Assembly (NCBI GenBank): GCA_963737905.1
Contig: CAVTUQ010000008.1
Span: 32,001 to 96,000 of the forward strand
Source of the DNA: an uncultured delta proteobacterium
Lineage (GTDB): Bacteria > Desulfobacterota > Binatia > UBA9968
DNA length: 64,000 bases
Direction of reading: 5' to 3'
Every line of letters begins with the position of its first letter. Position 1 is the stretch's first letter. The position numbers and the translations under genes are program-made. The notes below the pieces were generated by a model. It saw only the letters and a program-made list of their open reading frames with translations. It was not told the DNA's origin and ran no database searches. Positions 9,492 through 59,151 of the stretch are shown piece by piece.

Positions 9492-10099
9492 TAGCGGGCC
9501 TCCTGTTGGGCGAGCAGAGCCAGCTCCAGGCGCGAAGCGAAGTATTCGATATTCTCCATCTCCTTTTCCGCGCGTGAGGTAAAATAGTTGTAGGGAATGA
9601 GAGTCAGAATCGCGATGAGCAATCCGGTCGCGGTCGCGATCAGAGCCTCGGCGACTCCCCCTGTCACTGCGTGAGGCTGGCCCAGTCCGGCGTCGGACAT
9701 GATGCCGAAAGAGCTGATCATGCCGGTAATCGTGCCGAGAAGGCCCAAGAGCGGCGCCAAAGTGATGATCGTATCGAGAATCACCAGACGGCGCTTGAGA
9801 ATCGGCATCTCGCCCTGCGCCGCCACTTCCATGGCTTTCGAGTAGGAAGGATTGCGGTGCGCTAGGCCGGCGGTGAGAACCCGCGCGGCTGGCAATGGCG
9901 ACCCCTGACCGTCGGAGAGCGCTTCCTTCAATTTCCCTTGCTCAACCGATGCGAGCATCTGCTCTACCGGCTGCTTCGAGCTGATGCCGCGCCAGTAGAG
10001 AAGGCGTTCTATGGTTACCGCGAGTGAAATGATCGAGCACAAAACCAAGGGGATCATGACCAGCCCCCCTTTGACGACAATGGAAATGATGTCAGACAT
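9491..10099 (-). CDS. exbB: MotA/TolQ/ExbB proton channel
   Basis: GGLVMIPL, APLLGLLGTITGMI and GGVAEALIATATGL; start MSDIIS at 10099. Confidence 0.92.
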   Translation of the reverse strand: MSDIISIVVKGGLVMIPLVLCSIISLAVTIERLLYWRGISSKQPVEQMLASVEQGKLKEALSDGQGSPLPAARVLTAGLAHRNPSYSKAMEVAAQGEMPILKRRLVILDTIITLAPLLGLLGTITGMISSFGIMSDAGLGQPHAVTGGVAEALIATATGLLIAILTLIPYNYFTSRAEKEMENIEYFASRLELALLAQQEAR

Positions 10100-24933: not shown

Positions 24934-24949
24934 TGGCATCGCGCTTGCT
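24934..24949 (+). promoter_or_regulatory. Sigma-54 promoter (proximal) upstream of PII copy 2
   Basis: TGGCATCGCGCTTGCT, GG-N10-GC. Confidence 0.75.
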
Positions 24950-25381: not shown

Positions 25382-27145
25382 ATGGAACGAGGAAAATATA
25401 GGACTATCTTTGCGTCCTTGGTCGGAGGGCTTTGGATGTTATTGTTTATGGGGTTTTCATTTGCTGCCGAGGAAGCTCCGCCACCGGCGGGTGGAGAACC
25501 GCCAAAAGCCGAGGCTCCAGCGGCTGCACCCGCGGTGCCCGCGCCAAAGCTGCCGCCGTATTTTACGGCCACGAGCCCGGACCCCAAGACGACGTTGTGG
25601 CCGGATCCGACAGGTGCAAACTCCGGTGTCTGGGCGGCGCCGGCCGGAGACGGCAAAGGAGATCTCCCGGAGAAGCTGTCCGTTCAAGACGTCTACGACC
25701 GGATGGCGCACAACCTGTTCGCGATCAATTTTGTCTGGGCGCTTGTCACCGGCTTTCTCGTCATGTTTATGCAGGCGGGCTTTATGATGGTCGAGACCGG
25801 TCTATGTCGCGCGAAGAACAGCTCCCACACCGCAGCGATGAATCTGATGATTTACCCACTAGGTGGACTCGGGTTTTGGATCTATGGCTTTGCGATCGGC
25901 TGGGGCAACTGGTGGAACGGACCGGTGCCCCCAGGTTGGTTTGCCTCTCTCGGTCCCGGTCTGTCGATGTTGAATGGCGGTTGGGGGTTGGGTGCGGCGG
26001 TGGACGCTGCCGGGAAAGCTACGGGGGCATTCACGTATGGCATCATTGGAACGACGGGTTGGTTTCTCACGGGCGTCGCCAATGACGTTGCCGTCATGGT
26101 GCTTTTCTTTTTTATGATGGTCTTCATGGATACGACGGCGACGATTCCCACTGGAGCGATGGCCGAGCGCTGGTCATGGAAGAATTTCCTTCTCTACGGC
26201 TTTTGGGTAGCACTTCCCTATTGTATCTATGCGAATTGGCTCTGGGGTGGCGGTTGGCTAGCGCAAGGTGGCATCAATTGGGGTCTTGGGCATGGAGCGG
26301 TGGACTTTGCCGGTTCGGGTGTTGTTCACGCGATGGGGGGGATCATTGGGCTGGCTGGCGCGATGGTCATCGGTCCCCGTATTGGCAAATACGATTCGCA
26401 AGGCCGGCCGAAGGCCATGCCTGGCCATAGCGTACCGATGGTTGTAGCAGGTACCTTTATCCTAGCTTTTGGCTGGTTTGGGTTTAACCCGGGTTCTACC
26501 CTTGCCGGTACAGATCTACGCATCAGCTTCATCGTGGTGAACACGATGCTCGCCAGCTTTACCGGATCTCTCTTCGCTATGTTTACGCTCATGGCCAAGG
26601 GGCTCAAGCCAGATACGACAATGATGTGCAACGGTATGCTCGCGGGGCTCGTGGCAATCACCGCGCCTTGTGCATTCGTCAATCCCGTGGGGGCGGTGAT
26701 CATCGGTGCAGTTGCCGGTATCCTTGTCGTGCTCAGTGTTTTCTTCTTCGAAGCGCGTGGCATTGACGATCCGGTCGGCGCCATCTCCGTGCACGGTACA
26801 AACGGTCTCTGGGGCGTGTTGTCCGTAGGTATTTTTGCGACCGGCGAGTACGGCGCAGGCTGGAATAGCGTGGTGCGCGACGAGATGGTGAAGGTCTATG
26901 GTTCAGACGGCGTCCGCGGTCTCCTATACGGTGATTTCTCCCAGTTCATAATGCAGATCATAGACTGCGCGGTCGTTGCGGTGTTTGGCTTTGTCATGGC
27001 CTACATCTGGTTCAAAATCAGCGACCTGATTACGCCGATCCGCGTCAGCGTAGAAACCGAGACGGAGGGGCTCGACGGCCCAGAGATGGGCGTCCTCGGT
27101 TACCCGGACTTCCAGCTCCATCAGGGATCGAGGATTGTGGAATAG
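25382..27145 (+). CDS. amtB: Ammonium transporter with long N-terminal extension
   Basis: FMQAGF, GAMAER, DFAGSGVVH, FGWFGFN, DDPVGAISVHG. Confidence 0.93.
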   Translation: MERGKYRTIFASLVGGLWMLLFMGFSFAAEEAPPPAGGEPPKAEAPAAAPAVPAPKLPPYFTATSPDPKTTLWPDPTGANSGVWAAPAGDGKGDLPEKLSVQDVYDRMAHNLFAINFVWALVTGFLVMFMQAGFMMVETGLCRAKNSSHTAAMNLMIYPLGGLGFWIYGFAIGWGNWWNGPVPPGWFASLGPGLSMLNGGWGLGAAVDAAGKATGAFTYGIIGTTGWFLTGVANDVAVMVLFFFMMVFMDTTATIPTGAMAERWSWKNFLLYGFWVALPYCIYANWLWGGGWLAQGGINWGLGHGAVDFAGSGVVHAMGGIIGLAGAMVIGPRIGKYDSQGRPKAMPGHSVPMVVAGTFILAFGWFGFNPGSTLAGTDLRISFIVVNTMLASFTGSLFAMFTLMAKGLKPDTTMMCNGMLAGLVAITAPCAFVNPVGAVIIGAVAGILVVLSVFFFEARGIDDPVGAISVHGTNGLWGVLSVGIFATGEYGAGWNSVVRDEMVKVYGSDGVRGLLYGDFSQFIMQIIDCAVVAVFGFVMAYIWFKISDLITPIRVSVETETEGLDGPEMGVLGYPDFQLHQGSRIVE

Positions 27146-27380: not shown

Positions 27381-27396
27381 TGGCATGCGAGTTGCT
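27381..27396 (+). promoter_or_regulatory. Sigma-54 promoter of glnB-glnA operon
   Basis: TGGCATGCGAGTTGCT, GG-N10-GC. Confidence 0.82.
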
Positions 27397-27468: not shown

Positions 27469-27825
<357 letters not shown>

Positions 27826-27941
27826 AACGACATCATGAGATCGATGGATATCTGGCAAGAAACAATGACCTAGAATCCTTGGCAGGCAAGGGACGAACAA
27901 CATTCCCAACGAGCAATAGTCAATTAGGAGGCAAATGTAAC

Positions 27942-29357
27942 ATGGCAGCCAAAGACGTACTGGAGCTAGTCAAGAAGAACAAAATAGAATTTGTGGATTT
28001 CAAATTTGTGGACGTGCCCGGGTTATGGCAGCACTTTTCGATTCCGGCGGCAGAGTTGACGGCGGACTTATTTGAAGACGGGATTGGCTTTGACGGCTCC
28101 AGCATACGGGGATTTCAGTCGATCAACGAGTCCGACATGCTCCTTATCCCCGACCCCGACAGCGCCATGATGGACCCGTTCACCGAGCATGTGACGTTGA
28201 GCTTAACCTGCAACGTCATCGACGCCGTGACCCGAGAGTCCTACAGTAGAGATCCCCGTTACGTAGCCCAAAAAGCGGAGAAATACCTAAAATCGACAGG
28301 AATAGCCGACATAAGTTACTGGGGGCCCGAGATCGAGTTCTTCATCTTTGACAACATTAGATTCAACCAAAGCACCAACGAAGGGTATTACTTTATCGAC
28401 TCCGAAGAAGCGTTTTGGAACTCGGGGAGCAATGACAAACAGAACCTGGGCTACAAGATCCGCTATAAAGAAGGCTATTTCCCCGTGCCACCCATGGACC
28501 AATACCAGGATCTGCGCTCCGAGATGGTCAAGAACCTAGAGAAATGCGGCATCAAGGTCGAGGTGCACCATCACGAAGTGGCCACCGGGGGACAGACCGA
28601 AATCGACATGCGCTATGGGACGCTCACGCGGATGGCCGACCAGGTTTTGCTGTACAAGTACGTGGTCAAGAACACCGCTCGAAAGCGCGGCAAAGTGGTC
28701 ACCGTGATGCCCAAGCCCCTATTCCAAGACAACGGTTCCGGCATGCACGTCCACCAGAGTCTGTGGAAGGCCGGCAAGAACATCTTCTACGACAAGAAGG
28801 GTTATGGATTAATCAGCGAGACCGCCAGATACTATATTGGCGGCTTAATTAAACATGCCCACGCGCTGTGCGGCTTTATCGCGCCGACAACCAACTCCTA
28901 CCGAAGGCTGGTTCCCGGCTACGAAGCGCCGATCAACCTTGTCTATTCAGCCCGTAACCGAAGTGCCTGTGTTCGAATCCCCATGTACTCGACCAGCGAG
29001 AAGGCCAAGCGGCTCGAATTCCGTACTCCTGATCCGAGCTGCAATCCTTATTTTGCCTTTCCGGCGATGCTGATGGCGGGCCTCGATGGGATACGAAACA
29101 AGATCGAGCCGCCCAAGCCCATCGACAAAGACTTATATGATCTGGAGCCGGAAGAGGCTGCCAAGATCAAATCGATGCCCGGGTCCTTGGATCAAGCCCT
29201 GGATGCGCTTGAGAAAGACCATGAATTCCTACTTCGAGGGGATGTGTTTACCAAGGATGTGATTGAGACCTGGCTTGACTACAAGCGTAAGAAGGAGGTC
29301 GATGCCATCCGGCTCAGACCCCATCCCCATGAATTCGCCCTGTACTTCGATATCTAA
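27942..29357 (+). CDS. glnA: Glutamine synthetase type I
   Basis: FDGSSI, HHEVATGGQ, DNGSGMHVH, RLVPGYEAP, NRSACVRIP, DLYDL adenylylation region; AGGAGG RBS. Confidence 0.97.
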   Translation: MAAKDVLELVKKNKIEFVDFKFVDVPGLWQHFSIPAAELTADLFEDGIGFDGSSIRGFQSINESDMLLIPDPDSAMMDPFTEHVTLSLTCNVIDAVTRESYSRDPRYVAQKAEKYLKSTGIADISYWGPEIEFFIFDNIRFNQSTNEGYYFIDSEEAFWNSGSNDKQNLGYKIRYKEGYFPVPPMDQYQDLRSEMVKNLEKCGIKVEVHHHEVATGGQTEIDMRYGTLTRMADQVLLYKYVVKNTARKRGKVVTVMPKPLFQDNGSGMHVHQSLWKAGKNIFYDKKGYGLISETARYYIGGLIKHAHALCGFIAPTTNSYRRLVPGYEAPINLVYSARNRSACVRIPMYSTSEKAKRLEFRTPDPSCNPYFAFPAMLMAGLDGIRNKIEPPKPIDKDLYDLEPEEAAKIKSMPGSLDQALDALEKDHEFLLRGDVFTKDVIETWLDYKRKKEVDAIRLRPHPHEFALYFDI

Positions 29358-29384: not shown

Positions 29385-30131
29385 ATGGACGAGGTCCTAG
29401 TTTTTCAGCACGACCCGTTTGAGGGTCTGGGTTTTTTTGCGGAGGTATTGGAAAAGCAGGGAGCGAGTTTTCGAACGATCCGGCTTTTTCATGGCGAGGT
29501 GCCTGCCGAGGATTGGGAGGAAACCAGCGCTCTCATCATTCTTGGTGGGCCGATGAGCGTGTCTGACGAGGAACAATATCCGTTCCTTCGTTGGGAAAAG
29601 ACGATTATCCGCGCGGCCATAGACGACGCAGTGCCCCTCTTGGGAGTCTGTTTGGGTGCGCAGCTTATCGCGGCCGCTCTTGGTGCGGAGGTTCATCACG
29701 GACCGGTGAAAGAAATCGGTTGGTATCCGATTTCAATCACACCGCATGGGCAGGTGGATTCATCGCTTGGGTACCTTCCCGAAAACGCGGTGGTGTTTCA
29801 ATGGCACGGCGACGGTTTTGGTATGCCTGCCGGCGCGCAACGCTTAGCGTCGTCCACCTATTATGAAAATCAGGCGTTTCGCCTGGGCAAAAACATCTAT
29901 GGTCTCCAGTTCCATCTTGAGATGACGTCGGAAATGATTGAGCGATGGATCGATGAACGTTCCAAAGACCTCGCCCAGGTTCCTTACATTCATCCGGACA
30001 AAATAGTCAGTGATACCCAAAACTACCTGCCCACCTTGAAATATTACGCGGAAAAGTTTCTGTCAGAATTCATCCGTCGCGCGACCAAACCGAAAAACAT
30101 AAGAACAAAAAAAGGCCACGCAAAAGTATGA
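29385..30131 (+). CDS. Class I glutamine amidotransferase domain protein
   Basis: ILGGPMSV, GVCLGAQL (nucleophile Cys), QWHGD, GLQFHLE (His/Glu). Confidence 0.9.
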   Translation: MDEVLVFQHDPFEGLGFFAEVLEKQGASFRTIRLFHGEVPAEDWEETSALIILGGPMSVSDEEQYPFLRWEKTIIRAAIDDAVPLLGVCLGAQLIAAALGAEVHHGPVKEIGWYPISITPHGQVDSSLGYLPENAVVFQWHGDGFGMPAGAQRLASSTYYENQAFRLGKNIYGLQFHLEMTSEMIERWIDERSKDLAQVPYIHPDKIVSDTQNYLPTLKYYAEKFLSEFIRRATKPKNIRTKKGHAKV

Positions 30132-30715
30132 GGAGGGTCCTGGTCATAGACGACCATGTTCCCTCCCGCGACAATCTAAAACGGGCTCTGGCTGCCAGTG
30201 GTTGTCAGATTGTCGGCGAGGGAATGAGCGGCAAGGGAGCGGCCCAGTTAGCTTCGGCCACGGTCCCTGATGTAATTTTGATGGCGGTGGGCCTGTCTGA
30301 TCTGGATGGGATACGCGCTGCGCGGAAGATCATGCAGGCAAAGCCCGTTCCGGTTATTCTTGTCAGCAGCCACTACGACCCCGAAACTGTCGAGCGCGCT
30401 AAACGTGCCGGCGTGATGGGTTATCTTCTCAAACCTCTGCGAGACGGCGAGCTGCTACCCACAATCGAAATTGCAGTGTCTCATTTCCAAGAGTTTGTTG
30501 CCCTCCAAAAAGAAAACGAGAATCTCAAGAAGACCCTCGAAGCACGGAAGATCATTGAGCGCGCGAAAGGGATTTTGATGAAGAGCCAAGGACTTTCGGA
30601 GGGGGAGGCATTTTCCTTAATTCAGAAAAAGAGCATGGACTTACGTAAACCGATGGGTGAAATCGCGGAAGCGGTGATCTTGAGCGCAGAGCTCTCTAAA
30701 GGGAAGAGCGATTAA
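30128..30715 (+). CDS. ANTAR-domain antiterminator with atypical receiver domain (NasT/AmiR-like)
   Basis: ANTAR motif RKIIERAKGILM...EAF..IQKKSMD; receiver PDVILMAVG has Ala at the phospho-Asp position. Confidence 0.92.
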   Translation: MRRVLVIDDHVPSRDNLKRALAASGCQIVGEGMSGKGAAQLASATVPDVILMAVGLSDLDGIRAARKIMQAKPVPVILVSSHYDPETVERAKRAGVMGYLLKPLRDGELLPTIEIAVSHFQEFVALQKENENLKKTLEARKIIERAKGILMKSQGLSEGEAFSLIQKKSMDLRKPMGEIAEAVILSAELSKGKSD

Positions 30716-30741
30716 AGCTCCGTGGTGCGCCAACGATTCGG

Positions 30742-30758
30742 TGCTGAATTCCCGGGCA
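30742..30758. promoter_or_regulatory. NtrC-type enhancer site
   Basis: TGCTGAATTCCCGGGCA (TGC-N11-GCA). Confidence 0.5.
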
Positions 30759-30840
30759 GGGAGTGATTCTTTGATACGCAATCCACTTGTGAGGCGATGA
30801 AATAACACCGTAGGCAAGAACTTTTTTCCCAAGATAGCGC

Positions 30841-30856
30841 TGGCATAACCGTTGCT
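30841..30856 (+). promoter_or_regulatory. Sigma-54 promoter
   Basis: TGGCATAACCGTTGCT, GG-N10-GC. Confidence 0.82.
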
Positions 30857-30871
30857 ACTCAGCGAGTCAAG

Positions 30872-30936
30872 GGCAACGTTGCCATCGGTCGAGCAAAGGC
30901 GCTCATCGTGCAAGCGGTGGAGCGCTTTTGTTTTTT
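30872..30936 (+). promoter_or_regulatory. ANTAR-target dual hairpin overlapping an intrinsic terminator
   Basis: P1 GGC-AACGTT-GCC and P2 GAGC-AAAGGC-GCTC (A1/G4 hexaloops); terminator CAAAGGCGCTC...GAGCGCTTTTG-TTTTTT. Confidence 0.85.
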
Positions 30937-30955
30937 GGTTGATAAGGAGGTCTTT

Positions 30956-31156
30956 ATGGCTCGGCGTCACGAGAAAACAATCACCGGAAAAATATTCGAG
31001 AATATCCTCTTTTTGGAAGAGGTCTTTGGTGACAAGGCCGATACGGATATCCCGGATGTACCGGTTCTCGAATTAGCAAAATGCTTTGAATTGTCTCATC
31101 GAAGAACGTTGCATCCCACCAGAGGACGCCAGAAGCCCTGGCCGCTTTGGAAATAG
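30956..31156 (+). CDS. Hypothetical protein under sigma-54/ANTAR control (may extend to 31323 via frameshift)
   Basis: TAAGGAGG RBS, ATG 30956; another frame continues ALAALEIERANYRITEVNDWVVVHP... to TAA 31323. Confidence 0.7.
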   Translation: MARRHEKTITGKIFENILFLEEVFGDKADTDIPDVPVLELAKCFELSHRRTLHPTRGRQKPWPLWK

Positions 31157-31640
31157 AGCGGGCGAATTACCGAATCACCGAGGTGAATGATTGGGTTGTC
31201 GTCCACCCCTCGGGCAAAGCCCAAAACAGCGAACCCCTTTCACGGCCTAAGATTGACCAAGATCGCGGAGTGTACAAACTACAAGTTCGAGCATTGTCCA
31301 GCCGAGCCGAGCTTAAAGTCTAAACGACGTCAGCTCAGGCAATCAATTCACTTTGAAGGGCAAACCAAAAAACGAGCGCCATAAAACCATTCACCCAATA
31401 TCTGTCCACGCTTTGGGTCAAGAATTGCATTGGTTCAGCGAGACTGTAGTTGATGACCAGTCGGGCATCATGAAAGCGCCGGAAAACTAAGTGGAACTTA
31501 GGATTTCTAGGCCCCATCGGCTGGCTTTGAGAAAAGCGTTGCCTAAATCTTAGTCCTGGCTGTGGTTAATGTTTGAGCGTTTGCTTAATTTCGTAACACT
31601 TAATTTTCGATTCCAGTCGATACTTGGTTGGCTCATTGGG

Positions 31641-31656
31641 CGGTATCTAAGTTGCT
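31641..31656 (+). promoter_or_regulatory. Sigma-54 promoter of porin gene
   Basis: CGGTATCTAAGTTGCT, GG-N10-GC; degenerate enhancer-like sites at 31540-31598. Confidence 0.65.
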
Positions 31657-31723
31657 TATCTAGAAAAGACTTTTTGACTGTGTCATATCACGCGTAGTCT
31701 CAATTTTTAGGAGGTGCACGACG

Positions 31724-32996
31724 ATGAAAAAAGGTGTGGTGGGTTTGTGGATTTTCAGCTTGTTTTTCTTGCTCAGCACGGTATACGCGGCTGAGCCGGA
31801 ACAGAAACCAGCTGCGCCGGAACAGAAACCGGCCGAGCCGGCGGAAAAACCTTTAGAACCAGGGTGGCTAAGCTTAGATAGCAGTGTGGGCGTTGCGGAC
31901 AATTGGATCGCACTTAATAAGTCAGCTGTGGAAAACGCTTTAGGGTTCAGCATTGGCGGGTACTTGGACACGAGTTACACTTGGAGTTCACGTCATCCGA
32001 AAGATCCCTCCAGAATCAGCGGTCGATATTTCTATGGAGACCAGAACAAAGTCGACTTTAACGATTTCCATATAGTTTTCGACAAGCCGGAGAAAGATTG
32101 GGGTGTTGGCTTCCACATATCCGGTGATTTCGGCCGCACCGGAGAGTTGTTGAGGGAAGCGACGTTGTGGAGCCTAAACTTGAATAAGGAACCTTCAGCC
32201 GAGTTGCGCGAGTCCTACATCACCACGACGATTCCTGTCGGTGAAGGAATTCAATTCAAGGGAGGTTTGTTTGTAACGACTCTGGGAACGGAAATCCTTC
32301 CAAACCCAGGCTCTTACAATGACCAAATAACGCGTTCGTTCGCGTTCAACTATGCCATTCCACTTCGTCACCTAGGCGGTCTTTTTACCTATCCATTTCT
32401 CAAAACGCTGACTGGCACCATGGGTGTTGTAACCGGTTGGGATAATCCTCGCGATAACAACGGTTCGCCATCGGGATTGTTTGGGCTAACCTTCACCCCC
32501 AGTGACACGTTCTCGTTGGCAAGCAATATCATCGTTGGTCCAGAACAGACGCATAACACCAACGATCCCCGTTTTACCTGGAGTAATGTCGCCACGATCA
32601 AGCCAATGGACCCTCTTACTCTCTTGCTAGAGTTTACGCTTGGTTTTGAGCAAGACGCATCGACGCCGACGGGTATTAAGGATGCCCAGTGGTACGCCTT
32701 CGCTGGTACAGGAGTCTTGGAGCTGGACGGACCGCTTCAGCACGTCGCTCCGAACCGAGCTATTTTTAGATGAAGGAGCGTCGAGGACGTCAAGGCTTTG
32801 CGGCCACCAAACCTATATTTCAACGTTGCGTTAGGTGAAGTGACGTTGGCGGGAACCTACAAGTTCACCAAAATGTTCCAGGGCCGAGCGGAGTTTAGGC
32901 AAGACTGGGCCAATCGAGCCGTTTATAAGAGAGGGTCGCAGCAACGCCAATGCCAATCAGACGACCTTAGGCCTGCAGTTGCTCTATCAATACTAG
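31724..32996 (+). CDS. Outer-membrane beta-barrel porin (BBP2/DUF1597-like), frameshifted near C-terminus
   Basis: Signal peptide, GGYLDTSY, GLFVTTLGTE, VTGWD, RAEFRQD, C-terminal QLLYQY beta-signal. Confidence 0.8.
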
Positions 32997-46343: not shown

Positions 46344-46420
46344 CGGGGCGTAGCGCAGCCTGGTAGCGCACCTGCCTTGGGCGCAGGGGGTCGGAAGTTC
46401 AAATCTTCTCGCCCCGACCA
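46344..46420 (+). tRNA. tRNA-Pro(TGG)
   Basis: Cloverleaf; anticodon loop CTTGGGC; CCA end. Confidence 0.95.
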
Positions 46421-46426
46421 GATTTA

Positions 46427-46486
46427 CAGTCAGCAGTGGACAGTAACCAGTGAACAGTTGGGGCGACTGTTTTCTGTTCACTGCTA
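46427..46486. repeat. Heptamer inverted array in tRNA spacer
   Basis: CAGTCAG CAGTGGA CAGTAAC CAGTGAA CAGT ... ACTGTTT TCTGTTC ACTGCTA. Confidence 0.65.
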
Positions 46487-46497
46487 GCTTTTGAGTT

Positions 46498-46574
46498 GCG
46501 CCAGTAGCTCAGCTGGATAGAGCAACGGCCTTCTAAGCCGTAGGTCAGGGGTTCGAATCCCTTCTGGCGCGCCA
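46498..46574 (+). tRNA. tRNA-Arg(TCT)
   Basis: Anticodon loop CTTCTAA; GTTCGAATC; CCA end. Confidence 0.95.
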
Positions 46575-46592
46575 CCGTGGGTTTTTCGATGT

Positions 46593-46669
46593 GGTGAGTG
46601 TAGCTCAACGGTTAGAGCACTGGACTGTGGCTCCAGGGGTTGAGGGTTCAAATCCCTTCACTCACCCCA
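46593..46669 (+). tRNA. tRNA-His(GTG)
   Basis: Anticodon loop CTGTGGC; G-1; CCA end. Confidence 0.95.
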
Positions 46670-46682
46670 AGCTATTTCGTCT

Positions 46683-46743
46683 GAGGATAGACGATCGAAT
46701 CGACGATCACGATCTTCGATCCTCTGTATTCGATGCTCGATTT
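46683..46743. repeat. Heptamer inverted array in tRNA spacer
   Basis: GAGGATA GACGATC ... CGATCTT CGATCCT CTGTATT CGATGCT; same family as 36527-36591. Confidence 0.55.
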
Positions 46744-46750
46744 GGCGCAT

Positions 46751-46826
<76 letters not shown>

Positions 46827-46964
46827 AACATTTCAAGCAAAGACGCGTTACGTGGCACACGGGCGTTCCCGCTAAGAATCTATTGTTTAGACTAATTGGT
46901 AGTGAGATAATCTCATAACAATCCGCACCACCACGGCAAGCGCCTACCGCGGGCGGAGTCACAT

Positions 46965-47490
46965 ATGGGGCTGGATGAAGGAATGACCTACTCGATGCCC
47001 TTGGAGGTGTATCTCCAGTCAGCTGTAGTACGCGGAATCCTTGGTACGAATCAGGATCGTCTAAGCAACTATTTTATTCTTCGAGAAGGCGACGAGGTGT
47101 TTTCTCTCAAAGAGGCAATGCTGGAAAGTCGCAGACCGAAAACCGGTGGCGATAAGTGCTGACGAGTACCTTATTTATATGCAAGAAGTATTTTTGATCG
47201 CGGATCTGAGTCCGCAATTCAGGTCGGAGCGGTCGGGTCTCGAGCATCTCTACGTGAAGAAAGAGGCGAGCAAAGCGTTGTTGGGCGTCGGTCCATTCTG
47301 GCTCCGAGGAAATATCCATCTTATACCTGGGAGTGCACTCCATGAGCTTTTGATGGCAAAAACGCGCTTCATTCCAGTAACCGATGCGACGTTGATAGAT
47401 CGCTCCGACGTGGGACCCCGCACCTATCTGGTTAATCGAACCAAGATCGGTTTCATCACAGCCGTCGGCGAAGGCCTAGAAGAGTTATAA
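46965..47490 (+). CDS. Hypothetical protein with tandem DUF6812-like domains (frameshift near 47130)
   Basis: Repeated pattern RG.l....RLS...F..L.EA and RGNIHL.PG...RFIPVTDA...VNR..I. Confidence 0.6.
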
Positions 47491-47505
47491 TCATAAGGAT
47501 GAATT

Positions 47506-47823
47506 TTGGAATCGCACTATCCGACTGAAATCAACCATATTAAAGCGGACGGCCTCATCCGGATCACTTGGGAGGATGGTCACGTTGGAGCGTACGCTCA
47601 GGAGTATCTTCGCGGGTACTGCCCCTGTGCGTTGTGCCAAGGGCACGGGGTGCAAAGAAATTTTGTTTCCGTTCCCGAGGCTAGGCTACAAGAGATTCGC
47701 GCTGTCGGTAACTATGCCATCGAATTCGTCTGGCACGACGGTCATAGCACCGGAATCTACACTTACGACTACCTAAGATCTCTCTGTCCCTGTGACGGTT
47801 GTAAAGAGCGTCAACCCGATTAG
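47506..47823 (+). CDS. DUF971 / gamma-butyrobetaine hydroxylase N-terminal-like protein
   Basis: ITWEDGH, YLRGYCPCALC, VGNYAI..WHDGHSTGIYTYDYL. Confidence 0.88.
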   Translation: MESHYPTEINHIKADGLIRITWEDGHVGAYAQEYLRGYCPCALCQGHGVQRNFVSVPEARLQEIRAVGNYAIEFVWHDGHSTGIYTYDYLRSLCPCDGCKERQPD

Positions 47824-47934
47824 GCCTGATCTTTCCTCGCCTGAATCTGCTCGTCTCATGAACCTGCACTATAAGTCATGTCTGCTCGTGTGCAGAAATC
47901 CAAGCTCGCTTAGGTAATTTAGGCGGTGCAGCAC

Positions 47935-47963
47935 TTGACATAGCACAACTCCTTTTCTACTCT
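47935..47963 (+). promoter_or_regulatory. Sigma-70-type promoter of tRNA-Leu/tig
   Basis: TTGACA-N17-TACTCT. Confidence 0.6.
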
Positions 47964-48006
47964 CCTTTTTTGTTCTGAGAGGTCGACGTGTTCTTGAGTA
48001 ATTCAA

Positions 48007-48090
48007 GCGAGAGTGGCGGAACTGGCAGACGCACTAGACTTAGGATCTAGCGGGTAACCCGTGGGGGTTCGAGTCCCCCCTCTCGCACCA
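48007..48090 (+). tRNA. tRNA-Leu(TAG)
   Basis: Anticodon loop CTTAGGA; long variable arm; CCA end. Confidence 0.95.
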
Positions 48091-48219
48091 AAATCATAAA
48101 TAGTCTATGACATTAGTGGTGAGATAGAATATGAGTCGTTCAGTCACAGCCGAAGCGAGCTGGAATCCGCGGATCGAATTTGAATGCACAAGGGAGCGGG
48201 ATGCGTTTTGTGATGAGTT

Positions 48220-49545
48220 ATGAAGATAGACGTTGATGAAATAAGTCCGGTGCAGCGAAAGATCCGAGTTGAACTACCTGCGGAAGCGGTGGCCAGTGAG
48301 TTTTCCCGCGCGTACGAAGACCTCCGGCGACGAGTACGCATAAAAGGATTCCGCGCCGGCAAGGCGCCCCGGGGTGTACTGCAAGGCATCTACGGGGACG
48401 AACTTAAGGGACAGGTGCGGTCGCAGCTGGTGGAGGAATCTTTGGGGGAGGTCATCAAAGAGCGGGGGCTGCAGATCGTTTCCCGACCTGAGATTGAAGC
48501 CAATGATCTGGTCGAAGGCAGTCCTTTTTCTTTCTCAGCTGTTTTCGAAATCAAGCCGGCAATCGAAGTCAAGGACTATTTGGGTATCGAGGTCGAGAAA
48601 GTCAAACTTTTTGTTACCGATGACCAGGTCAATGAAGCGCTCCGTCGACTCCAGGAGAGTCATGCGCGGCTGGAGCCTGTTGAAAATCGCACCGTCGTCC
48701 AGCAGGGAGACTTTGTCACTTTGGATTTTGAAGGATCTATTGCGGGCAAGCCATTTCAAGGCGGAAAAGGAGAGAACTATTTTTTGGAAGTTGGTGGCGG
48801 ACAGGCATTGCCGCAATTTGAAGAAGCAGTTATAGGACTGACTCAGGGGGTGCCCACGAAACTTCAAGTCGTCTATCCGGAGAATTATTCAAATAGCGAG
48901 CTTGCTGGCAAGACCGTGGATTTTTCTGTGCTGGTACGCGAGATCAAGCAAAAGGTACTTCCGGAGCTTGACGACGATTTCGCCAAAGATCATGGCGAAT
49001 GCGGTTCTCTAGCGGAGCTAAGAACAGCCATCCAGACACGCCTGGAAAATGAGCTGAATCACATTCAACAAGAGGAACTCAAAGAGCAGATTATTGGTCG
49101 TCTTATTGAAACTAGTTCCTTTGCGCCGCCACCCACGATGGTGGAGCGACAAACCCGTTACCTCATGGAGCGCTATCAAAACCGAGGCCTCGGACAAAGC
49201 GCTTCGGGACCGCAGCCGGCGCCCTCTTTGGAAGAAACGAGAAAAACTCTCGAAGGGCGCGCTCAGCGTCAGGTTCAAGCGACCCTGTTAGTTGAAAAGA
49301 TTGCTCAGCTTGAAAATATCGAGGTCTCCGACAAAGAGGTTCAGGAAAGGGTTGAAAACCTCAGTCGGGCCGCCGGTGACAGGGCAAAAACGGTCCGCGA
49401 GGCCTACTCTAAGCCGGAGACCCGGGACGATTTGCGGGCCCAGATGGTTTTCGATCGTACACTCGGTTTTCTACTCGAACGCGCGCTCATTAAGGAGGTC
49501 GATGCGCCCGCCACAAAGGTTGATGAACAAGGTAAAAAAGGCTAA
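48220..49545 (+). CDS. tig: Trigger factor
   Basis: GFRAGKAP signature, FKBP domain, upstream of clpP. Confidence 0.95.
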   Translation: MKIDVDEISPVQRKIRVELPAEAVASEFSRAYEDLRRRVRIKGFRAGKAPRGVLQGIYGDELKGQVRSQLVEESLGEVIKERGLQIVSRPEIEANDLVEGSPFSFSAVFEIKPAIEVKDYLGIEVEKVKLFVTDDQVNEALRRLQESHARLEPVENRTVVQQGDFVTLDFEGSIAGKPFQGGKGENYFLEVGGGQALPQFEEAVIGLTQGVPTKLQVVYPENYSNSELAGKTVDFSVLVREIKQKVLPELDDDFAKDHGECGSLAELRTAIQTRLENELNHIQQEELKEQIIGRLIETSSFAPPPTMVERQTRYLMERYQNRGLGQSASGPQPAPSLEETRKTLEGRAQRQVQATLLVEKIAQLENIEVSDKEVQERVENLSRAAGDRAKTVREAYSKPETRDDLRAQMVFDRTLGFLLERALIKEVDAPATKVDEQGKKG

Positions 49546-49578
49546 AATGCTCTTTGTGGTTGAGGAGTTTCCTAAGAA

Positions 49579-50181
49579 ATGAACTTTATTCCTATTGTCG
49601 TTGAGCAGACCGGTCGCGGGGAACGCGCCTACGACATTTACTCTCGGCTACTCAAGGATCGTATCGTATTTCTCGGGTCCGTGGTCACCGATGATGTGGC
49701 GAACCTGATCACTGCGCAGTTACTCTTTCTGGAATCTGAAGATCCCGACCGAGACGTTTTCTTTTATATCAACAGCCCTGGGGGTTCGGTAACCGCAGGC
49801 CTTGCTATCTATGACACAATGCAATATGTCCGACCCCAGATCTCGACCGTTTGCGTCGGCCAAGCTGCGAGCATGGGCGCGGTACTGCTAGCCGCAGGGG
49901 CAAAGGGAAAGCGCTACTCCCTGCCCCACTCGCGCATCATGATTCACCAGCCGCTGGGTGGGTTTCAAGGCCAAGCTGCCGATATCGATATTCAGGCCCG
50001 TGAAATTCTTCGGATGCGGGAAGATTTAAACAATATCTTGATGAAGCACACGGGGCAAAGTCTAAAAAAAATTGAAAAGGACACGGATCGTGATCTTTTT
50101 CTGAATGGCAAGCAAGCCCAGGAATACGGGTTGGTGGATGAAGTTATCGCCACGCGACCGGAAAGCAGCCTCAAGAAGTGA
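49579..50181 (+). CDS. clpP: ATP-dependent Clp protease proteolytic subunit
   Basis: [29 protein letters not shown]. Confidence 0.97.
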
Positions 50182-50207
50182 GGGAACTTTAGTGAAGCGG
50201 GGGTTCT

Positions 50208-51458
50208 ATGCCAAAGCACGGTGAGACTTCGGGAAATCTTGTCTGCTCTTTCTGCGGGAAGAGTCAGGATGAGGTGCGCAAGCTGATTGCGGGCCCGACA
50301 GTATATATTTGCGATGAGTGCATCGATCTTTGCAACGATATCATCGCTGAGGAGTGCGAGCACGACGAAACTCTGACGGCGTCGTCCAATGTACCCAAAC
50401 CCGCCGAGATCAAACGCGTATTAGATCAGTACGTGATTGGTCAGGAGAGGGCGAAAAAGATCCTGGCTGTAGCCGTCCATAATCACTACAAGCGCATCGA
50501 TAGCCAGATGGTCACGGGGGATGTGGAGTTGCAGAAAAGCAACATCCTTCTGCTGGGACCGACGGGATCGGGAAAAACATTGTTGGCGCAGACTTTGGCT
50601 CGTTTTCTCCAAGTTCCCTTCACCATCGCTGACGCCACCAGCCTGACCGAGGCAGGGTATGTCGGAGAGGATGTAGAAAATATCATTCTTAGCCTCCTCC
50701 AAGCTGCCGACTACGACGTTGAAAAAGCTCAGCGTGGGATCGTCTATATAGATGAAATCGACAAAATCTCGCGGAAGGCAGACAACCCGTCGATAACTCG
50801 CGACGTTTCGGGCGAAGGCGTACAGCAGGCGTTGCTGAAGATCATTGAAGGAACGATGGCGAGCGTCCCTCCGAAGGGTGGCCGAAAACACCCACAGCAG
50901 GAGTTCCTGCAAGTGGATACGACCAACATCCTTTTCATCTGCGGTGGCGCGTTTGTCGGGCTCGAGGACATCATTCGCAAGCGGACGGGACGCAAGCGGA
51001 TGGGATTTGGCGGTGAGCTCGAAGAAAGAGATGGTAGAAGACCGACCGAACTTTTGCATGACGTGCAGCCGGAGGACTTGTTGAAATTTGGTCTGATTCC
51101 CGAGTTTATTGGAAGGCTGCCCGTTATCGCTACGCTGGATGAGCTAGACGAGACAGCCCTGGTACGTATCCTGAGAGAGCCGAAGAATGCGCTGACCAAA
51201 CAGTATTCCAAACTTTTTGACATGGAGAGCGTCCACCTGAAGTTTACCGAGGAAGCACTTCAAGCGATTTCCCGTGAGGCGATGAAACGAAAGTCGGGCG
51301 CGCGCGGACTCAGGGCGATCATGGAAAATATCATGCTCGAAATCATGTACGATATGCCTTCCCAACCCAACATCAAAGAGGTCGTTATTTCCGAGGACGT
51401 TGTAAACAAGAATGAACTTCCCATTGTCGTATACACCAAGGCTGCGGAGAGCGCGTAG
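50208..51458 (+). CDS. clpX: Clp protease ATP-binding subunit ClpX
   Basis: CSFCGK Zn-finger, [26 protein letters not shown]. Confidence 0.97.
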
Positions 51459-51464
51459 AGAGGA

Positions 51465-53936
51465 ATGGATATGTTATTTCGCAATGATAAAGACAAAAAA
51501 GACGAACCGGCGACCGGCGTAACGCGGGTACCCTTGTTACCTCTCAGGGATATTATCGTTTTTCCTCATATGGTGGTTCCTTTGTTTGTCGGTCGGCAGC
51601 GTTCGATCAAAGCGCTGGAAGAAGCCACACAGAAGCAAGGACCGATCTTCCTTTCGTCCCAAAAGGATGCAAAAACCAATGAGCCAACGGAAGAGGACAT
51701 CTATAAGATCGGTACCCTAGGCACGGTTGTGCAGATGTTAAAGCTTCCTGATGGGACGGTGAAAGTTCTCATCGAGGGCAAGAAGAGGGCTCAAGTTAAC
51801 CGGTTTGTGAACAGTCCGGATTTCTTTTTGGTGGAAGTAGAGGAAGCCCCGGAGATCCTTGAACGGAACACAGAAGTGGAAGCATTAACTCGTGAAGTCC
51901 GCTCGACGTTTGAAAATTACGTCAAGCTGAAAAAGAAAATACCTCCGGAAATGGTGATGTCGGTCTCTTCGATCGACGATCCAGGCCGCTTGGCAGACAC
52001 CATCGTGGCGCATCTGGGCATCAAGCTCGAAGACCGACAAAATCTCCTCGAGACTTTCAATGCCGCAGAACGACTGGAAAAGGTCCTTGGCCATATGCGT
52101 GCCGAGATCGAGATCTTAGAGGTCGAGCGCCGCATTCGCTCGCGGGTAAAAAAGCAGATGGAGCGCTCGCAGAAAGAGTACTATCTGAATGAACAGATGC
52201 GGGCGATTCAGAAAGAATTGGGTGAAAAGGACGAATTCAAAAACGAAATTCAGGAGATTGAAGAAAAGATAAAGCAGAAGAAGCTTTCCGCGGAGGCGCG
52301 CGAGAAGGTGGATAAGGAGCTCAAGAAGCTCAAGATGATGTCACCCATGTCCGCGGAAGCTACGGTGGTCCGGAACTATATCGATTGGATTCTGAGTTTG
52401 CCGTGGAACGAGTTTACCGACGACAAACTCGATATTACCGAGGCCGAAAAGGTCCTCGAAGACGACCATTACGGGTTGGAAAAGGTCAAGGAGCGCATCC
52501 TGGAGTATTTGGCCGTCCAAAGTTTAGTCGGCAAGATCAAGGGTCCCATTCTTTGTCTCGTGGGTCCTCCGGGTGTTGGCAAAACATCATTAGGACGCTC
52601 CATTGCACGGGCAACGGGAAGAAAGTTCGTCCGCGTTTCATTGGGTGGCGTGCGCGATGAGGCAGAAATTCGAGGACATCGACGGACCTATATTGGCGCT
52701 TTGCCTGGCAAAATCGTTCAATCGATGAAGAAGGCGGGATCGAGCAATCCGGTTTTCCTGATGGATGAAATCGATAAGATGTCGACAGATTTTCGCGGGG
52801 ATCCATCCTCGGCGCTGCTTGAAGTTTTGGATCCAGAACAAAATACCACGTTCAATGATCACTATTTGGACTTGGACTACGATCTCTCCAAAGTTATGTT
52901 TATCACGACGGCGAACACGCTGGACCGGATTCCACGCCCGCTGCAAGACCGCATGGAAATTATAAGGATTGCTGGCTACACGGAGCTGGAAAAACTCAGC
53001 ATCGCTAAACGTTACTTATTGGAAAAGCAGAAGGAAGCGAATGGCTTGAAGCCAGAGAATGCCACATTTACGGACAATGCTCTGCTCGGCGTGATTCGGC
53101 ATTACACCAAAGAAGCCGGAGTGCGAAACCTGGAGCGGGAAATCGCCGCCATCTGCCGAAAGGTTGCGGTGGAAGTCGTTAAAAAGGATCGGGACTCGCA
53201 CATCCAAGTGGGCACAAAGAGCCTGCACAGGTATTTGGGTCCCGCCAAATATCGATATGGTAAAGCGGAAGCTGAACAGAAGATCGGAGTGACGACCGGA
53301 TTGGCCTGGACCGAACTCGGTGGTGAGCTCTTGGCGACCGAAGTGACGGTTATGCCCGGAAAGGGACAGCTGATTATCACGGGCAAGCTCGGCGATGTCA
53401 TGCAAGAGTCAGCTCGGGCCGCCATGAGTTACGTACGTTCGCGGGCGACTGAATTAGGATTGGAAAGAGACTTCTATCAGAAGATCGACGTTCACATTCA
53501 TGTCCCTGAAGGGGCGATTCCCAAAGACGGACCCTCGGCCGGCATTACGATGGCGACATCGCTTGTTTCCGCATTGACCAAGGTCCCGGTTTACAACGAC
53601 CTCGCGATGACCGGTGAGATAACACTTAGAGGCGCGGTTCTCCCCATCGGTGGTTTGAAAGAAAAAGTTCTGGCGGCACATCGAGCGGGCATAAAGAAAG
53701 TACTCATCCCGGCAGAAAACGAAAAGGATATTGAAGAGATCCCTGCGAGCGTTCTAAAAACTGTGACGCTGGAATTGGTTGCTCATATGGATCAAGTGCT
53801 GAAGAAGGCCTTGGTTACGGACGATCCAGAGAACCTTTTCAAAGGCCCGCCCGAGCAAGTTGAGTCCAAGGAGGAACCCCCTCCCTTCGCGGGAAAAGTG
53901 GACGAAGTTCCTGGCCCTGAGATTCTGCCACAGTAA
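51465..53936 (+). CDS. lon: Lon protease
   Basis: [30 protein letters not shown]. Confidence 0.97.
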
Positions 53937-53959
53937 GTCATTCTAACCGCACAGGTGGT

Positions 53960-53988
53960 TTGACACCCGGTATTCCTGCTGTTATAAA
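53960..53988 (+). promoter_or_regulatory. Sigma-70-type promoter of hup
   Basis: TTGACA-N17-TATAAA. Confidence 0.65.
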
Positions 53989-54040
53989 ATCCCCTTGCCC
54001 TGTGTTTTGGATTGGGGCAAGGGATGATGAGGGGAGGACA

Positions 54041-54313
54041 ATGACAAAGGCGGATTTAATCGATTCGCTTGCGAAGCGATTTGAGTTACCCCGGCAGAGA
54101 GCGGAAGAGATTATCGGCGGATTGTTTGACGATATCTGTGCCGCTTTAAAGAACAGCGAGAAGGTAAATATTTCCGGGTTTGGTACCTTTTCAGTGTCCC
54201 ACCGAAAAGGGAGGACGGGAAGGAATCCCAAGACCGGTGAAACGATCGAAATTGCTCCGTCCCGAGCAGCCAAATTTAAAGCAGGCAAAATTCTAAAAGA
54301 GTCCCTCAGCTAG
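54041..54313 (+). CDS. hup: HU-family DNA-binding protein
   Basis: MTKADL, GFGTF, GRNPKTG, FKAGK; GGAGG RBS. Confidence 0.93.
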   Translation: MTKADLIDSLAKRFELPRQRAEEIIGGLFDDICAALKNSEKVNISGFGTFSVSHRKGRTGRNPKTGETIEIAPSRAAKFKAGKILKESLS

Positions 54314-54420
54314 ATATCATTCACCTTAACGTTGCAACTGGAAACAGCCTAAGGTAATAAAGCTGGACGGTTTGGTCTTTTTAAGGGCGAGCTATGGGCT
54401 GGTGTGTTTTCGTTTGAGAG

Positions 54421-54495
54421 GGGCGGTTAGCTCAGCGGGAGAGCATCGGCCTTACAAGCCGGGGGTCACAGGTTCAAATCCTGTACCGCCCACCA
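54421..54495 (+). tRNA. tRNA-Val(TAC)
   Basis: Anticodon loop CTTACAA; CCA end. Confidence 0.95.
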
Positions 54496-54516
54496 GACGG
54501 TTCGTCGCACAGTATC

Positions 54517-54593
54517 GGGGTCGTAGTTCAGCTGGTTAGAACGCCGGCCTGTCACGCCGGAGGTCGCGAGTTCGAGTCTCGTCGGCCCCGCCA
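54517..54593 (+). tRNA. tRNA-Asp(GTC)
   Basis: Anticodon loop CTGTCAC; CCA end. Confidence 0.95.
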
Positions 54594-54633
54594 TTTATGT
54601 ATTGAAGGATCGGAGTTTGCGGAGTTAGGGACG

Positions 54634-55059
54634 ATGAAAACAAAGGAAGCGCTTGCCCAACGGCAATGGTATGTGGTCGACGCTCAGGGAAAAGTATTGG
54701 GCCGCATGGCTACTGAAATCGCCAAGGTTTTGCGTGGGAAAAACAAGCCAATTTTTACACCCAATGCCGATGCCGGTGATTTTGTGATTGTCATCAATGC
54801 GCGAGGTGTGAAACTTACGGGAAAAAAGCTTCAAAAGAAGGTCTATTATCGCCACACCGAATATCCGGGTGGGATTCGCGAAAGAACGGCTGAAAAGATG
54901 CTGGAAGAGAAACCTGAGGACCTAGTGCTTCTGGCCGTTAAGGGGATGTTGCCAAAAAACCGGTTGAGTAGAAAGTTATTTACCAAGCTTAAGGTTTATG
55001 CAGGTCCCGAACATCCTCACGAAGCACAAAAGCCACAACCCCTGCTGATTGAAACATAG
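54634..55059 (+). CDS. rplM: 50S ribosomal protein L13
   Basis: [31 protein letters not shown]. Confidence 0.97.
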
Positions 55060-55073
55060 GAGTATAAGGATAG

Positions 55074-55466
55074 ATGGCTGAGAGGATGATTACCGCAACT
55101 GGAAGAAGGAAAACTTCTGTCGCCCGTGTCTTTTTGCGACAAGGTAAGGGTGCGATCTCGATCAATGAGCGATCGTTGGAGGAATACTTTGGTCGCGAAA
55201 CAGAACGAATGATTGTGCTCCAACCTTTTGGAGTGCTACAGGCCAGCGGCAGTTTTGACATCGAAGTCAATGTCAAAGGCGGCGGTAGCTCCGGTCAGGC
55301 GGGAGCCATCCGTCATGGGATTACACGCGCGCTCATACAGGCCGACTCCGCATTTCGTTCGCCACTTAAAAAGGCCGGGTTTGTCACGCGTGATCCGCGC
55401 GCTGTGGAACGAAAAAAGTACGGTCGCCATAAGGCGCGAAAGCGACCGCAGTACTCCAAACGATAG
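55074..55466 (+). CDS. rpsI: 30S ribosomal protein S9
   Basis: [33 protein letters not shown]. Confidence 0.97.
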
Positions 55467-55606
55467 AATCCTTATCTGAGCCGTCGGATCGGCTAAAACA
55501 TTTCGTTTTGCATGCTTGAGCACCTCGGGCGCTTCGTGGGTTGAACCTGTACGCATACTGATTCCTTCACACCGCGCCTTTGAAGTGCTTCACTCTCACG
55601 TGAAAC

Positions 55607-56716: not shown

Positions 56717-56726
56717 GCTGATGTCC

Positions 56727-57926: not shown

Positions 57927-57992
57927 GATCCTGTCATGCTATCTGTTGGTTTTGTGTTTGTAAAATCCTCCAGACAGTTTTGGAGAACGGAG

Positions 57993-58766: not shown

Positions 58767-58983
58767 TAGGTGTCAGAGATAGGTATTTTACGCCGGTTTT
58801 GTCTTACCTGTTGACATCGGAAGCTGAAGGTGGTTTAAATATCCGTTTACGAACAGGGAATTGATATTCTCTGTGCCGTCGTTCGCCATATAGGCTCAGG
58901 ATCCGTACGGTATAGGTCATAATCCCTCACCAATTAATCAGGATGTCGCTATTTGATGGCGCATGGGAATGTTCTCGAGCCAT

Positions 58984-59058: not shown

Positions 59059-59151
59059 GACAGATTAATTGTCATGGTGTTGAGATATACAGAACGGCGA
59101 TCGCTCGTTGGAAGCACGGGGCAAGGGATAGTGCAGTTTTTAGAGAGAAGA

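Follow-up and report, generated by a model that had tools for sequence, protein, structure and literature searches.

Nitrogen genes under the control of ANTAR antiterminators have been described in Klebsiella and in Geobacter. A section of a 2025 review (PMC12591593) places Klebsiella nasF under NtrC/RpoN control together with antitermination by NasR. For Geobacter, parts of Ueki and Lovley 2010 (PMC2995071) deal with genes that have an RpoN promoter and a leader terminator relieved by GnfR, a protein with a receiver (REC) and an ANTAR domain, and a conserved CAGGCAANGGCGCC that overlaps the terminator. The shape of such targets is given in passages of Ramesh et al. 2012 (PMC3369931) as two stem-loops with hexanucleotide loops, A at position 1 and G at position 4 of each loop, with the second stem-loop (P2) overlapping the terminator; nitrite reductase is listed there among the predicted ANTAR targets. 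The locus analysed here consists of such a leader and a 66-codon gene, called the mini-gene below, in a 64,000-nucleotide (nt) stretch of the genome of an uncultured delta proteobacterium (contig CAVTUQ010000008.1, positions 32,001 to 96,000 of the forward strand). The whole stretch is referred to as the window. Its + strand carries a nitrogen cluster (amt, PII, glnA, an amidotransferase-like gene and a REC-ANTAR gene), and the leader and mini-gene lie directly 3' of that cluster.

The locus is likely what is left of a nitrogen-assimilation operon transcribed with sigma-54 and controlled by ANTAR, of which only the 5' end, up to the first gene, remains. The assembly examined (G000) has 46 contigs, 6.7 Mb and 54.5% G+C, and is 87% complete. 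Orthologous loci were gathered by searching 41 genomes (G000 and 40 relatives) at the DNA level and 90 genomes of the family at the protein level, and the 20 best loci, the window's own included, make up the 20-locus alignment used throughout. A further 26 loci from public genomes overlap in species with the G-numbered genomes and are not independent of the 20-locus set. The features at issue are the following.

30128..30715, + strand: receiver-ANTAR antiterminator protein, 195 amino acids (aa) (Pfam Response_reg 7e-22, ANTAR 1.9e-21)
30742..30783, + strand: conserved upstream element (TGC..N..GGCA ... TGA..N..ACGCA), blocks about 60-100 nt 5' of the promoter in the 20-locus alignment
30841..30856, + strand: sigma-54 (-24/-12) promoter, TGGCATaaccgTTGCT, strict pattern, with columns invariant in relatives
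30872..30883, + strand: P1 hairpin GGC-AACGUU-GCC, 3 base pairs (bp) and a 6-nt loop with A1 and G4
30891..30904, + strand: P2 hairpin GAGC-AAAGGC-GCUC, 4 bp and a 6-nt loop with A1 and G4
30891-30933, + strand: intrinsic terminator hairpin of the minimum-energy fold, with a T tract TTTTGTTTTTT at 30926-30936
30943..30950, + strand: Shine-Dalgarno site TAAGGAGG, 5 nt before the ATG; a purine-rich AGGAG-like stretch precedes most of the 20 orthologous starts
30956..31156, + strand: intact 66-aa gene of an unannotated family, an open reading frame (ORF) with its ATG at 30956 and with conserved start and stop
31147..31323, + strand: remnant of a STAS-domain (anti-sigma-antagonist-like) gene, whose TTG start overlaps the mini-gene by 10 nt and whose first ~26-31 residues are homologous to STAS proteins of relatives

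A first-pass annotation, made from the letters of this DNA alone, had listed a sigma-54 promoter, P1 and P2 hairpins 7 nt apart, a terminator with P2 in its 5' arm, a T tract and an ORF. All of these are present, and they are conserved across the 20 loci.

The promoter and the leader

The sequence TGGCATAACCGTTGCT at 30841-30856 fits the sigma-54 spacing TGGCAC-N5-TTGCW, with GG at -24 and GC at -12. The window holds 4 instances of the strict pattern TGGCAYN5TTGCW, where shuffles lead one to expect 0.11, and two of the other instances are on the + strand, at 24934-24949 before amt and at 27381-27396 before glnB. The GGCA and TTGC columns of the promoter are invariant across the 20 aligned loci, and the motif GGCA[CT]-N5-7-TTGC was found in 20/20 of the best loci. 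An rpoN gene is present in the genome (Sigma54_DBD, 209.9 bits, contig C37), and no sigma-70-like promoter sites were found in 30000-32500. The conserved upstream element at 30742-30783 is a candidate site for the sigma-54 activator. From the arrangement of these promoters, the ANTAR gene itself may be expressed from the glnB promoter, which would make a cascade like that of Geobacter. The third further strict match lies at 32940-32955 on the - strand, inside or behind the porin gene.

Behind the promoter the two hairpins are separated by a linker of 7 nt, and the 5' arm of the terminator is made of all of P2 and the next five bases. Folded as a whole, 30855-30960 takes the terminator form at minimum energy (-37.9 kcal/mol, z -2.46). 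The terminator hairpin alone comes to -25.7 kcal/mol and the P1+P2 conformer to -9.7 kcal/mol; because the terminator fold is so much the stronger, termination would be the default and the alternative fold would need the help of a protein. The loops and the overlap support the assignment that the first-pass annotation had made, to the EutV/NasR-type dual-hexaloop architecture, with A1 and G4 in both loops and P2 overlapping the terminator.

The pairing of both conformations is conserved in the alignment. For P1+P2, 90.3% of cells are paired and 3 pairs show changes on both sides; the covariation score was matched by 2/500 shuffles, and slid controls pair in 33-48%. For the terminator, 97.3% of cells are paired and 2 pairs show such changes; the score was reached by 0/500 shuffles, with slid controls at 25-60%. 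The P1 stem is as long as 7 bp in relatives and holds the 3 pairs just mentioned. The P2 core is intact in 19/20 loci; only in G062 is the P2 loop shortened, and P1 is missing there. The four P2 core pairs are invariant in the 20 loci and are uninformative on structure either way.

Twenty-two leaders went into a covariance model whose structure consists of P1 and the terminator. Run on the window without filters, the model returns only this leader, at 75 bits (E about 1e-18), and the next match is the same hairpin on the other strand. The same scan found no such leader at amt, glnB or glnA in the window.

The mini-gene and its protein family

In 19/20 loci the orthologues use the same start and stop after WPLWK or WPLWN, with lengths of 64-67 aa; the exception is G059, with 77 aa and a changed tail. 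The ratio of nonsynonymous to synonymous substitution (dN/dS) for the mini-gene is 0.063 against G001 and 0.177 against G002, two genomes of the same genus, at a proportion of synonymous differences (pS) of about 0.53, and over codons 1-47 it is 0.03-0.09. As judged from the alignments, the mini-gene is intact and under purifying selection.

The mini-protein was matched in 37/90 family genomes, covering 9/23 genera, and 652 homologues at E up to 0.001 were found in a set of 5.8 billion proteins. None of the 120 homologues listed has a Pfam domain, and 'hypothetical protein' is the only name they carry. When 1.84 billion representatives were searched exhaustively with an HMMER profile, 79 clusters (50% identity) came out, all of 27-126 aa. 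Pfam gave nothing for the window's mini-protein, nor for 78/79 of the relatives and longer forms scanned, and searches of NCBIfam, of PDB with a profile (E up to 10) and of the ESM Atlas gave no match to the mini-protein. The first-pass annotation had recognised no family in this ORF, and the Pfam, NCBIfam and PDB searches agree with it. No paper on the family was found in literature searches keyed to ANTAR/GnfR, hexaloop and NirP1, an unnamed protein being unsearchable by words.

Among distant members the conserved core spans about residues 12-46. Of the columns in an alignment of 139 sequences, 14 are invariant. The basic tail has WPLWK at its end, and this WPLWK tail is specific to the closer genera. 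In the AlphaFold models residues 9-24 form a helix and residues 37-41/43 a short one, and the basic tail is disordered. Searches with the AlphaFold models gave no clear relative by fold (best Foldseek E 7.2, best VIA-align Z 3.2). A helix-turn-helix (HTH) reading, raised by the look of 'VLELAKCFELS', was dropped; no HTH family matched.

Our best guess for the mini-protein is an adaptor for binding, small and largely helical, that takes on its fold with a partner and acts within this regulatory and nitrite-assimilation module. It is possible, as a tentative suggestion, that this partner is among the operon's own products, STAS or NirA. A somewhat less likely suggestion is that it feeds back on the amidotransferase-ANTAR switch. 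A fuller proposal, which we think somewhat unlikely, is that the 66-aa protein is a dedicated trans-acting part of a kinase-independent ANTAR switch, binding either the amidotransferase-ANTAR pair as feedback or NirA/STAS in the manner of NirP1. If this fuller proposal were true, the mini-protein would be made only after antitermination and would set the duration and strength of the nitrogen-assimilation regulon's activity. It would also explain why the mini-gene is the one cargo kept beside the ANTAR gene where STAS, the gene for a protein of metallo-beta-lactamase (MBL) fold and nirA have been lost.

The ANTAR regulator

The ANTAR gene begins with a start codon that shares bases with the stop codon of the amidotransferase-like gene. 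Its product has the only match to the ANTAR domain PF03861 in the genome, at 76-78 bits. Pfam gives Response_reg and ANTAR only for this protein, with no NIT domain found, and a match to the AmiR_N profile is weak (18.5 bits, with the cut-off at 27). Ala53 of the protein aligns with the phospho-acceptor Asp of 1s8n (Rv1626), of 6wsh, an ANTAR-type response regulator that we take to be EutV, and of a CheY (MAV in place of MDV/MDI), and the orthologue in G002 has the same MAV. At one relative's locus (L060, 4329-5744) the amidotransferase-like protein is fused to REC-ANTAR in one 472-aa protein; downstream of the mini-gene this locus runs on into nitrate-transporter genes, for an NrtA-like binding protein and an ABC permease.

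The ANTAR gene stands directly upstream of the mini-gene in 24/26 public-genome loci. G062 (L028/L055) is the only locus with no ANTAR gene between the amidotransferase gene and the mini-gene; its leader is degenerate, with no P1 and a 5-nt P2 loop, its STAS and MBL genes are fragmentary, and regulator and target appear to be decaying together. The leader had been proposed as the direct target of the adjacent ANTAR protein, and this pairing is supported by association only: the protein is the sole ANTAR protein in the genome, the two are adjacent in 24/26 loci, and they degenerate jointly in G062. The earlier picture of a double nitrogen lock stands as an architecture of two successive controls. 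Its other half, that the second lock senses nitrogen starvation, need not hold, since Ala53 occupies the acceptor position.

Downstream genes in this genome and in relatives

The 26 public-genome loci were surveyed for the genes that lie near the mini-gene.

Amidotransferase gene present: 21/26
nirA within the flank: 18/26
STAS gene follows: 14/26
Porin gene: 7/26

These counts point to a constant unit of glnA, (amidotransferase), ANTAR, leader and mini-gene, followed by genes that vary. Relatives have two arrangements: the mini-gene may be followed by STAS, an MBL-fold gene (Lactamase_B) and nirA (for example in L014, L019 and L020), or directly by nirA (for example in G001, G002, L017, L021, L026 and L030). 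The nirA product has NIR_SIR domains and scores 565 bits against the ferredoxin-nitrite reductase family NF007125, whose cut-off is 594, the protein being cut at its 3' end. By its position in these loci, the mini-gene in relatives is the first cistron of a nitrite/nitrate-assimilation operon.

The STAS protein of relatives has 108-125 aa and its own ATG, GTG or TTG start, overlapping or within 10 nt of the end of the mini-gene, and passes the PF01740 cut-off. A relative's intact 115-aa STAS protein matches the window only at 31165-31242 (residues 2-27, 73% identity), in agreement with alignment A5, and Pfam gave no match for the ORF at 31147-31323, which falls short of a complete STAS domain of about 100 residues. 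When a relative's STAS, MBL and two further downstream proteins were compared by tblastn with 31100-31800, nothing was found beyond the STAS start. No orthologues of the STAS and MBL genes were found in this genome's assembly, nor was a close nirA, the only NIR_SIR protein there being a 30%-identical one elsewhere. Read from its genes, the mini-protein is the only intact product here of a truncated nitrite-assimilation operon.

A decayed second copy of the mini-gene and the STAS start lies at C22:111455-111748 on the - strand, with 80% DNA identity. It has one base missing in a T run, which shifts the frame, and stops in the STAS part; a sigma-54-like motif is kept upstream, and no ANTAR leader match was found there.

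In G070, a relative that like this genome has no nirA at the locus, the MBL gene is followed by a 174-aa ORF (L043:7809-8330) that matches no more of uroporphyrinogen-III C-methyltransferase, an enzyme of siroheme synthesis, than the C-terminal third. As judged from its sequence, this fragment is another sign of decaying nitrite-reductase clusters.

Proposed mechanism and alternative explanations

In the reading that we prefer, an ANTAR-controlled operon cut to its first gene, the -24/-12 promoter and the conserved upstream element would start a transcript whose first ~70 nt could fold in two ways. The default fold would be a strong terminator, and the alternative would be the two weak hairpins P1 and P2, the latter using the 5' arm of the terminator. 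Following the EutV/NasR/GnfR paradigm, transcription would start only with an active sigma-54 activator, signalling nitrogen limitation, and elongation past the terminator would take place only when the neighbouring ANTAR protein, as a dimer, clamped the P1 and P2 loops. The activity of the ANTAR protein would probably be set by a protein partner, because no phosphorylation is possible at the usual Asp, and the obvious candidate is the co-translated or fused amidotransferase-like protein. The first cistron made would be the intact 66-aa protein, next to which STAS is a stub, the MBL-fold and nirA genes being gone.

Several points weigh against this reading. P1 in the window has only 3 bp, and in many relatives its loop begins with G and not A (GACGxx), P2 keeping A1 and G4. 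Rfam 15 gave no leader match, either in 30700-31400 at E up to 10 or in the window at gathering scores, where only tRNAs were found, so that membership of the leader class rests on our own covariance model and the published criteria. The ANTAR protein has no acceptor Asp, so the phosphorylation step of GnfR and EutV cannot apply to it. The two monomer models of the mini-protein are weak, with a predicted local distance difference test score (pLDDT) of 66 and 72, the core at 11-45 reaching 81-88 in the second. In the search of the genome, 150 out of 3363 first-look candidates were scored, and further leaders may exist. With the genome at 87% completeness, 'nirA lost' means absent from the assembly.

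It is also conceivable that the leader and the mini-gene are leftovers of a nirA operon that is being lost, and that their conservation reflects only the recent past. The STAS gene cut to ~26-31 homologous residues would fit such a relic, as would the MBL and later genes that are undetectable, the assembly with no close nirA, and the second copy on C22, frameshifted, with stops and with no leader match. Decay is seen in relatives as well: G002 has an internally deleted STAS gene, G062 has no ANTAR gene and a degenerate leader, and G070 has the fragment of a siroheme gene. In the window, however, every element is intact, from the promoter through P1, P2, the terminator and the Shine-Dalgarno site to the start and the stop, and the C22 copy shows the speed at which an unconstrained copy breaks. 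The dN/dS of 0.06-0.18 against two same-genus genomes at pS about 0.5 also speaks against a relic, and so does the constancy of the mini-gene, which is the ANTAR gene's most constant partner and is kept with or without STAS, MBL and nirA. On this balance we regard a relic as unlikely.

Two other explanations concern the frame itself. It could be a translated upstream ORF that acts in cis, tuning the polarity or stability of the downstream message, with no protein acting in trans; the mini-gene is always the first cistron, lies directly 3' of the terminator and overlaps the next start by 8-10 nt where STAS is present, and the monomer model is only partly ordered. The amino-acid conservation is strong and position-specific, however (14 invariant columns in 139 sequences, dN/dS of 0.03-0.09 over codons 1-47), and the family is free-standing before varied neighbours (STAS, nirA, Usp, porin), with no intact downstream partner here. 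This conservation and the free-standing family are not expected if only the act of translation mattered, and a purely cis role is highly improbable. The first-pass annotation had given the ORF 66 aa as it stands and ~120 aa if frame-corrected, which would make the two frames one gene broken by a frameshift or sequencing error, and had offered a modulator of glutamine synthetase (GS) or PII as an example of its product. The two open frames do abut at 31147-31156, the locus does lie beside glnB and glnA, and small-protein regulators of nitrogen enzymes exist, an example being NirP1 as described in parts of PMC10907346. In relatives, however, the two are separate genes with their own starts, one of 64-67 aa ending in WPLWK/N and a stop and the other a STAS gene of 108-125 aa, and only 5 longer proteins were found in the set of 5.8 billion. 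These 5, one of them with a partial receiver domain, were rejected as likely gene-calling chimeras. The 66-aa frame ends at the same stop in relatives and the downstream frame is an overlapping, truncated STAS gene, which leaves the single broken gene scarcely credible. A tempting mis-annotation is corrected in this way: there are two overlapping genes, not one frameshifted.

Distribution of the leader and further targets

The leader was matched in 44/90 family genomes, covering 13/23 genera, at E up to 0.001 and mostly 1-3 times per genome; this tally and that of 37/90 for the mini-gene both include G006, with one weak match each. A leader match lies at most 450 nt upstream on the same strand for 30/39 mini-gene matches. 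The 39 omit the second fragment of the C22 copy, and the count used 57/68 leader rows, the 11 omitted being partial or opposite-strand echoes of the same hairpins. From these numbers the regulon appears very small, with 1-3 leaders per genome.

A genome scan with a covariance model, which the first-pass annotation had proposed as a way to further targets, gave one further convincing leader among the 150/3363 candidates scored. It lies at C25:30533-30612 (48 bits) with TGGCATaggaaTTGCC (TGGCAT-N5-TTGC) upstream. The leader precedes a 275-aa protein with a hydrophobic N-terminus (C25:30506-32163, L031:707-2363), for which no Pfam or NCBIfam match was found, and the gene of a universal stress protein (Usp) comes next. 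Usp genes were also seen behind such leaders in G046 (L097) and behind the mini-gene in G047 (L024). A third match of the model in this genome, on C15 (21.8 bits, E 0.046), resembles an ordinary hairpin at a gene end and was not counted. A regular-expression scan for dual hexaloops with stems of at least 4 bp was too noisy and missed the known leader, whose P1 has 3 bp; it was replaced by a promoter-anchored scan and the covariance model.

Two other arrangements were seen in relatives. In L004 (G013 C52:~25987-26065, - strand) a sigma-54 promoter and an ANTAR leader stand directly ahead of the ANTAR regulator gene, an arrangement that suggests autoregulation. L098 (G081 C264:1323-1783) and G097 C82:3238-3602 carry paired leaders, placed in tandem or on either side of the mini-gene (in the order leader, mini-gene, leader, nirA), a layout reminiscent of eut, where one locus has several terminators.

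The leader model now defined for this uncultured deltaproteobacterial family is compact and well conserved. With it an unannotated family of small proteins is flagged, which is almost always the first product released by the ANTAR switch. In cyanobacteria, the tuning of nitrogen enzymes by small proteins is under active study, and the family could be a possible counterpart in anaerobes of soil and sediment.

Neighbouring genes

The remaining genes around the locus are those of the nitrogen cluster upstream and a porin gene downstream.

25382-27145, + strand: ammonium transporter, amt (ORF list and Pfam)
27487-27825, + strand: PII, glnB (ORF list and Pfam)
27879-29357, + strand: glutamine synthetase, glnA (ORF list and Pfam)
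29385..30131, + strand: class-I glutamine amidotransferase-like gene (Pfam GATase 1.1e-18)
31724-32773, downstream of the mini-gene: BBP2/OmpL-like porin gene (Pfam)

The amidotransferase-like protein scores 228 bits against the NCBIfam glutamine amidotransferase PRK07053, below the cut-off of 250, and retains the GVCLGAQ motif and the H..E pair. Between the mini-gene and the porin gene there is a single weak terminator-like site, at 31676-31699. Downstream there is also a gene for a membrane protein; in relatives its counterpart has a match to PMT_2, a glycosyltransferase family.

A weak sigma-54-like motif, cGGtatctaagTTGCt, was seen at 31641-31656, 68 nt 5' of the porin start, and at a relative's locus (L051, ~9929-9944) a good TGGCATtcgttTTGCT stands ahead of the porin gene. 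From such sigma-54-like motifs before porin genes, the porin gene may share the same nitrogen regulon. The Rfam scan also found twelve tRNA genes on the + strand at 46344-61031, in three to four tight groups (46344-46823, 48007, 54421-54590, 58984-59483, 60957).

Comparison with known systems

Cyanobacterial NirP1, as described in parts of PMC10907346, is a small protein tied to nitrite assimilation that binds nitrite reductase. For the 66-aa protein before nirA this is an analogy only, with no sequence relationship claimed, and unlike NirP1 the mini-protein persists in loci with no nirA.

In Pseudomonas aeruginosa, as a section of the 2025 review describes it (PMC12591593), AmiR is an ANTAR protein with an unphosphorylated receiver-like domain and is sequestered by AmiC, a ligand-binding partner encoded next to it. 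The neighbour here is class-I amidotransferase-like and not a sensor like a periplasmic binding protein.

The Geobacter sulfurreducens GnfK/GnfR system, in the parts of PMC2995071 that describe it, also pairs a deltaproteobacterial REC-ANTAR protein with RpoN targets, and P2 here (GAGCAAAGGCGCUC) shares the loop AANGGC with CAGGCAANGGCGCC. GnfR takes its phosphate from GnfK, whereas Ala stands at the acceptor site of the protein here, whose gene is coupled or fused to an amidotransferase-like gene. The targets differ too: those described for Geobacter are nif, glnK and amtB (same parts of PMC2995071), and here the putative target is the mini-gene, with nirA in relatives, while no such leader was found at amt, glnB or glnA in the window.

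Klebsiella oxytoca nasF/NasR shares with this locus a -24/-12 promoter and ANTAR antitermination via A1/G4 hexaloops on a nitrate/nitrite operon, according to passages of PMC12591593 and PMC3369931. NasR senses nitrate/nitrite by its NIT domain, whereas the protein here is receiver-like, and the first cistron here is the 66-aa mini-gene, the assimilation genes being gone in this genome. The two-level design, sigma-54 initiation and then ANTAR antitermination, is already known, and the regulatory logic of the locus is ordinary, with nothing new in principle.

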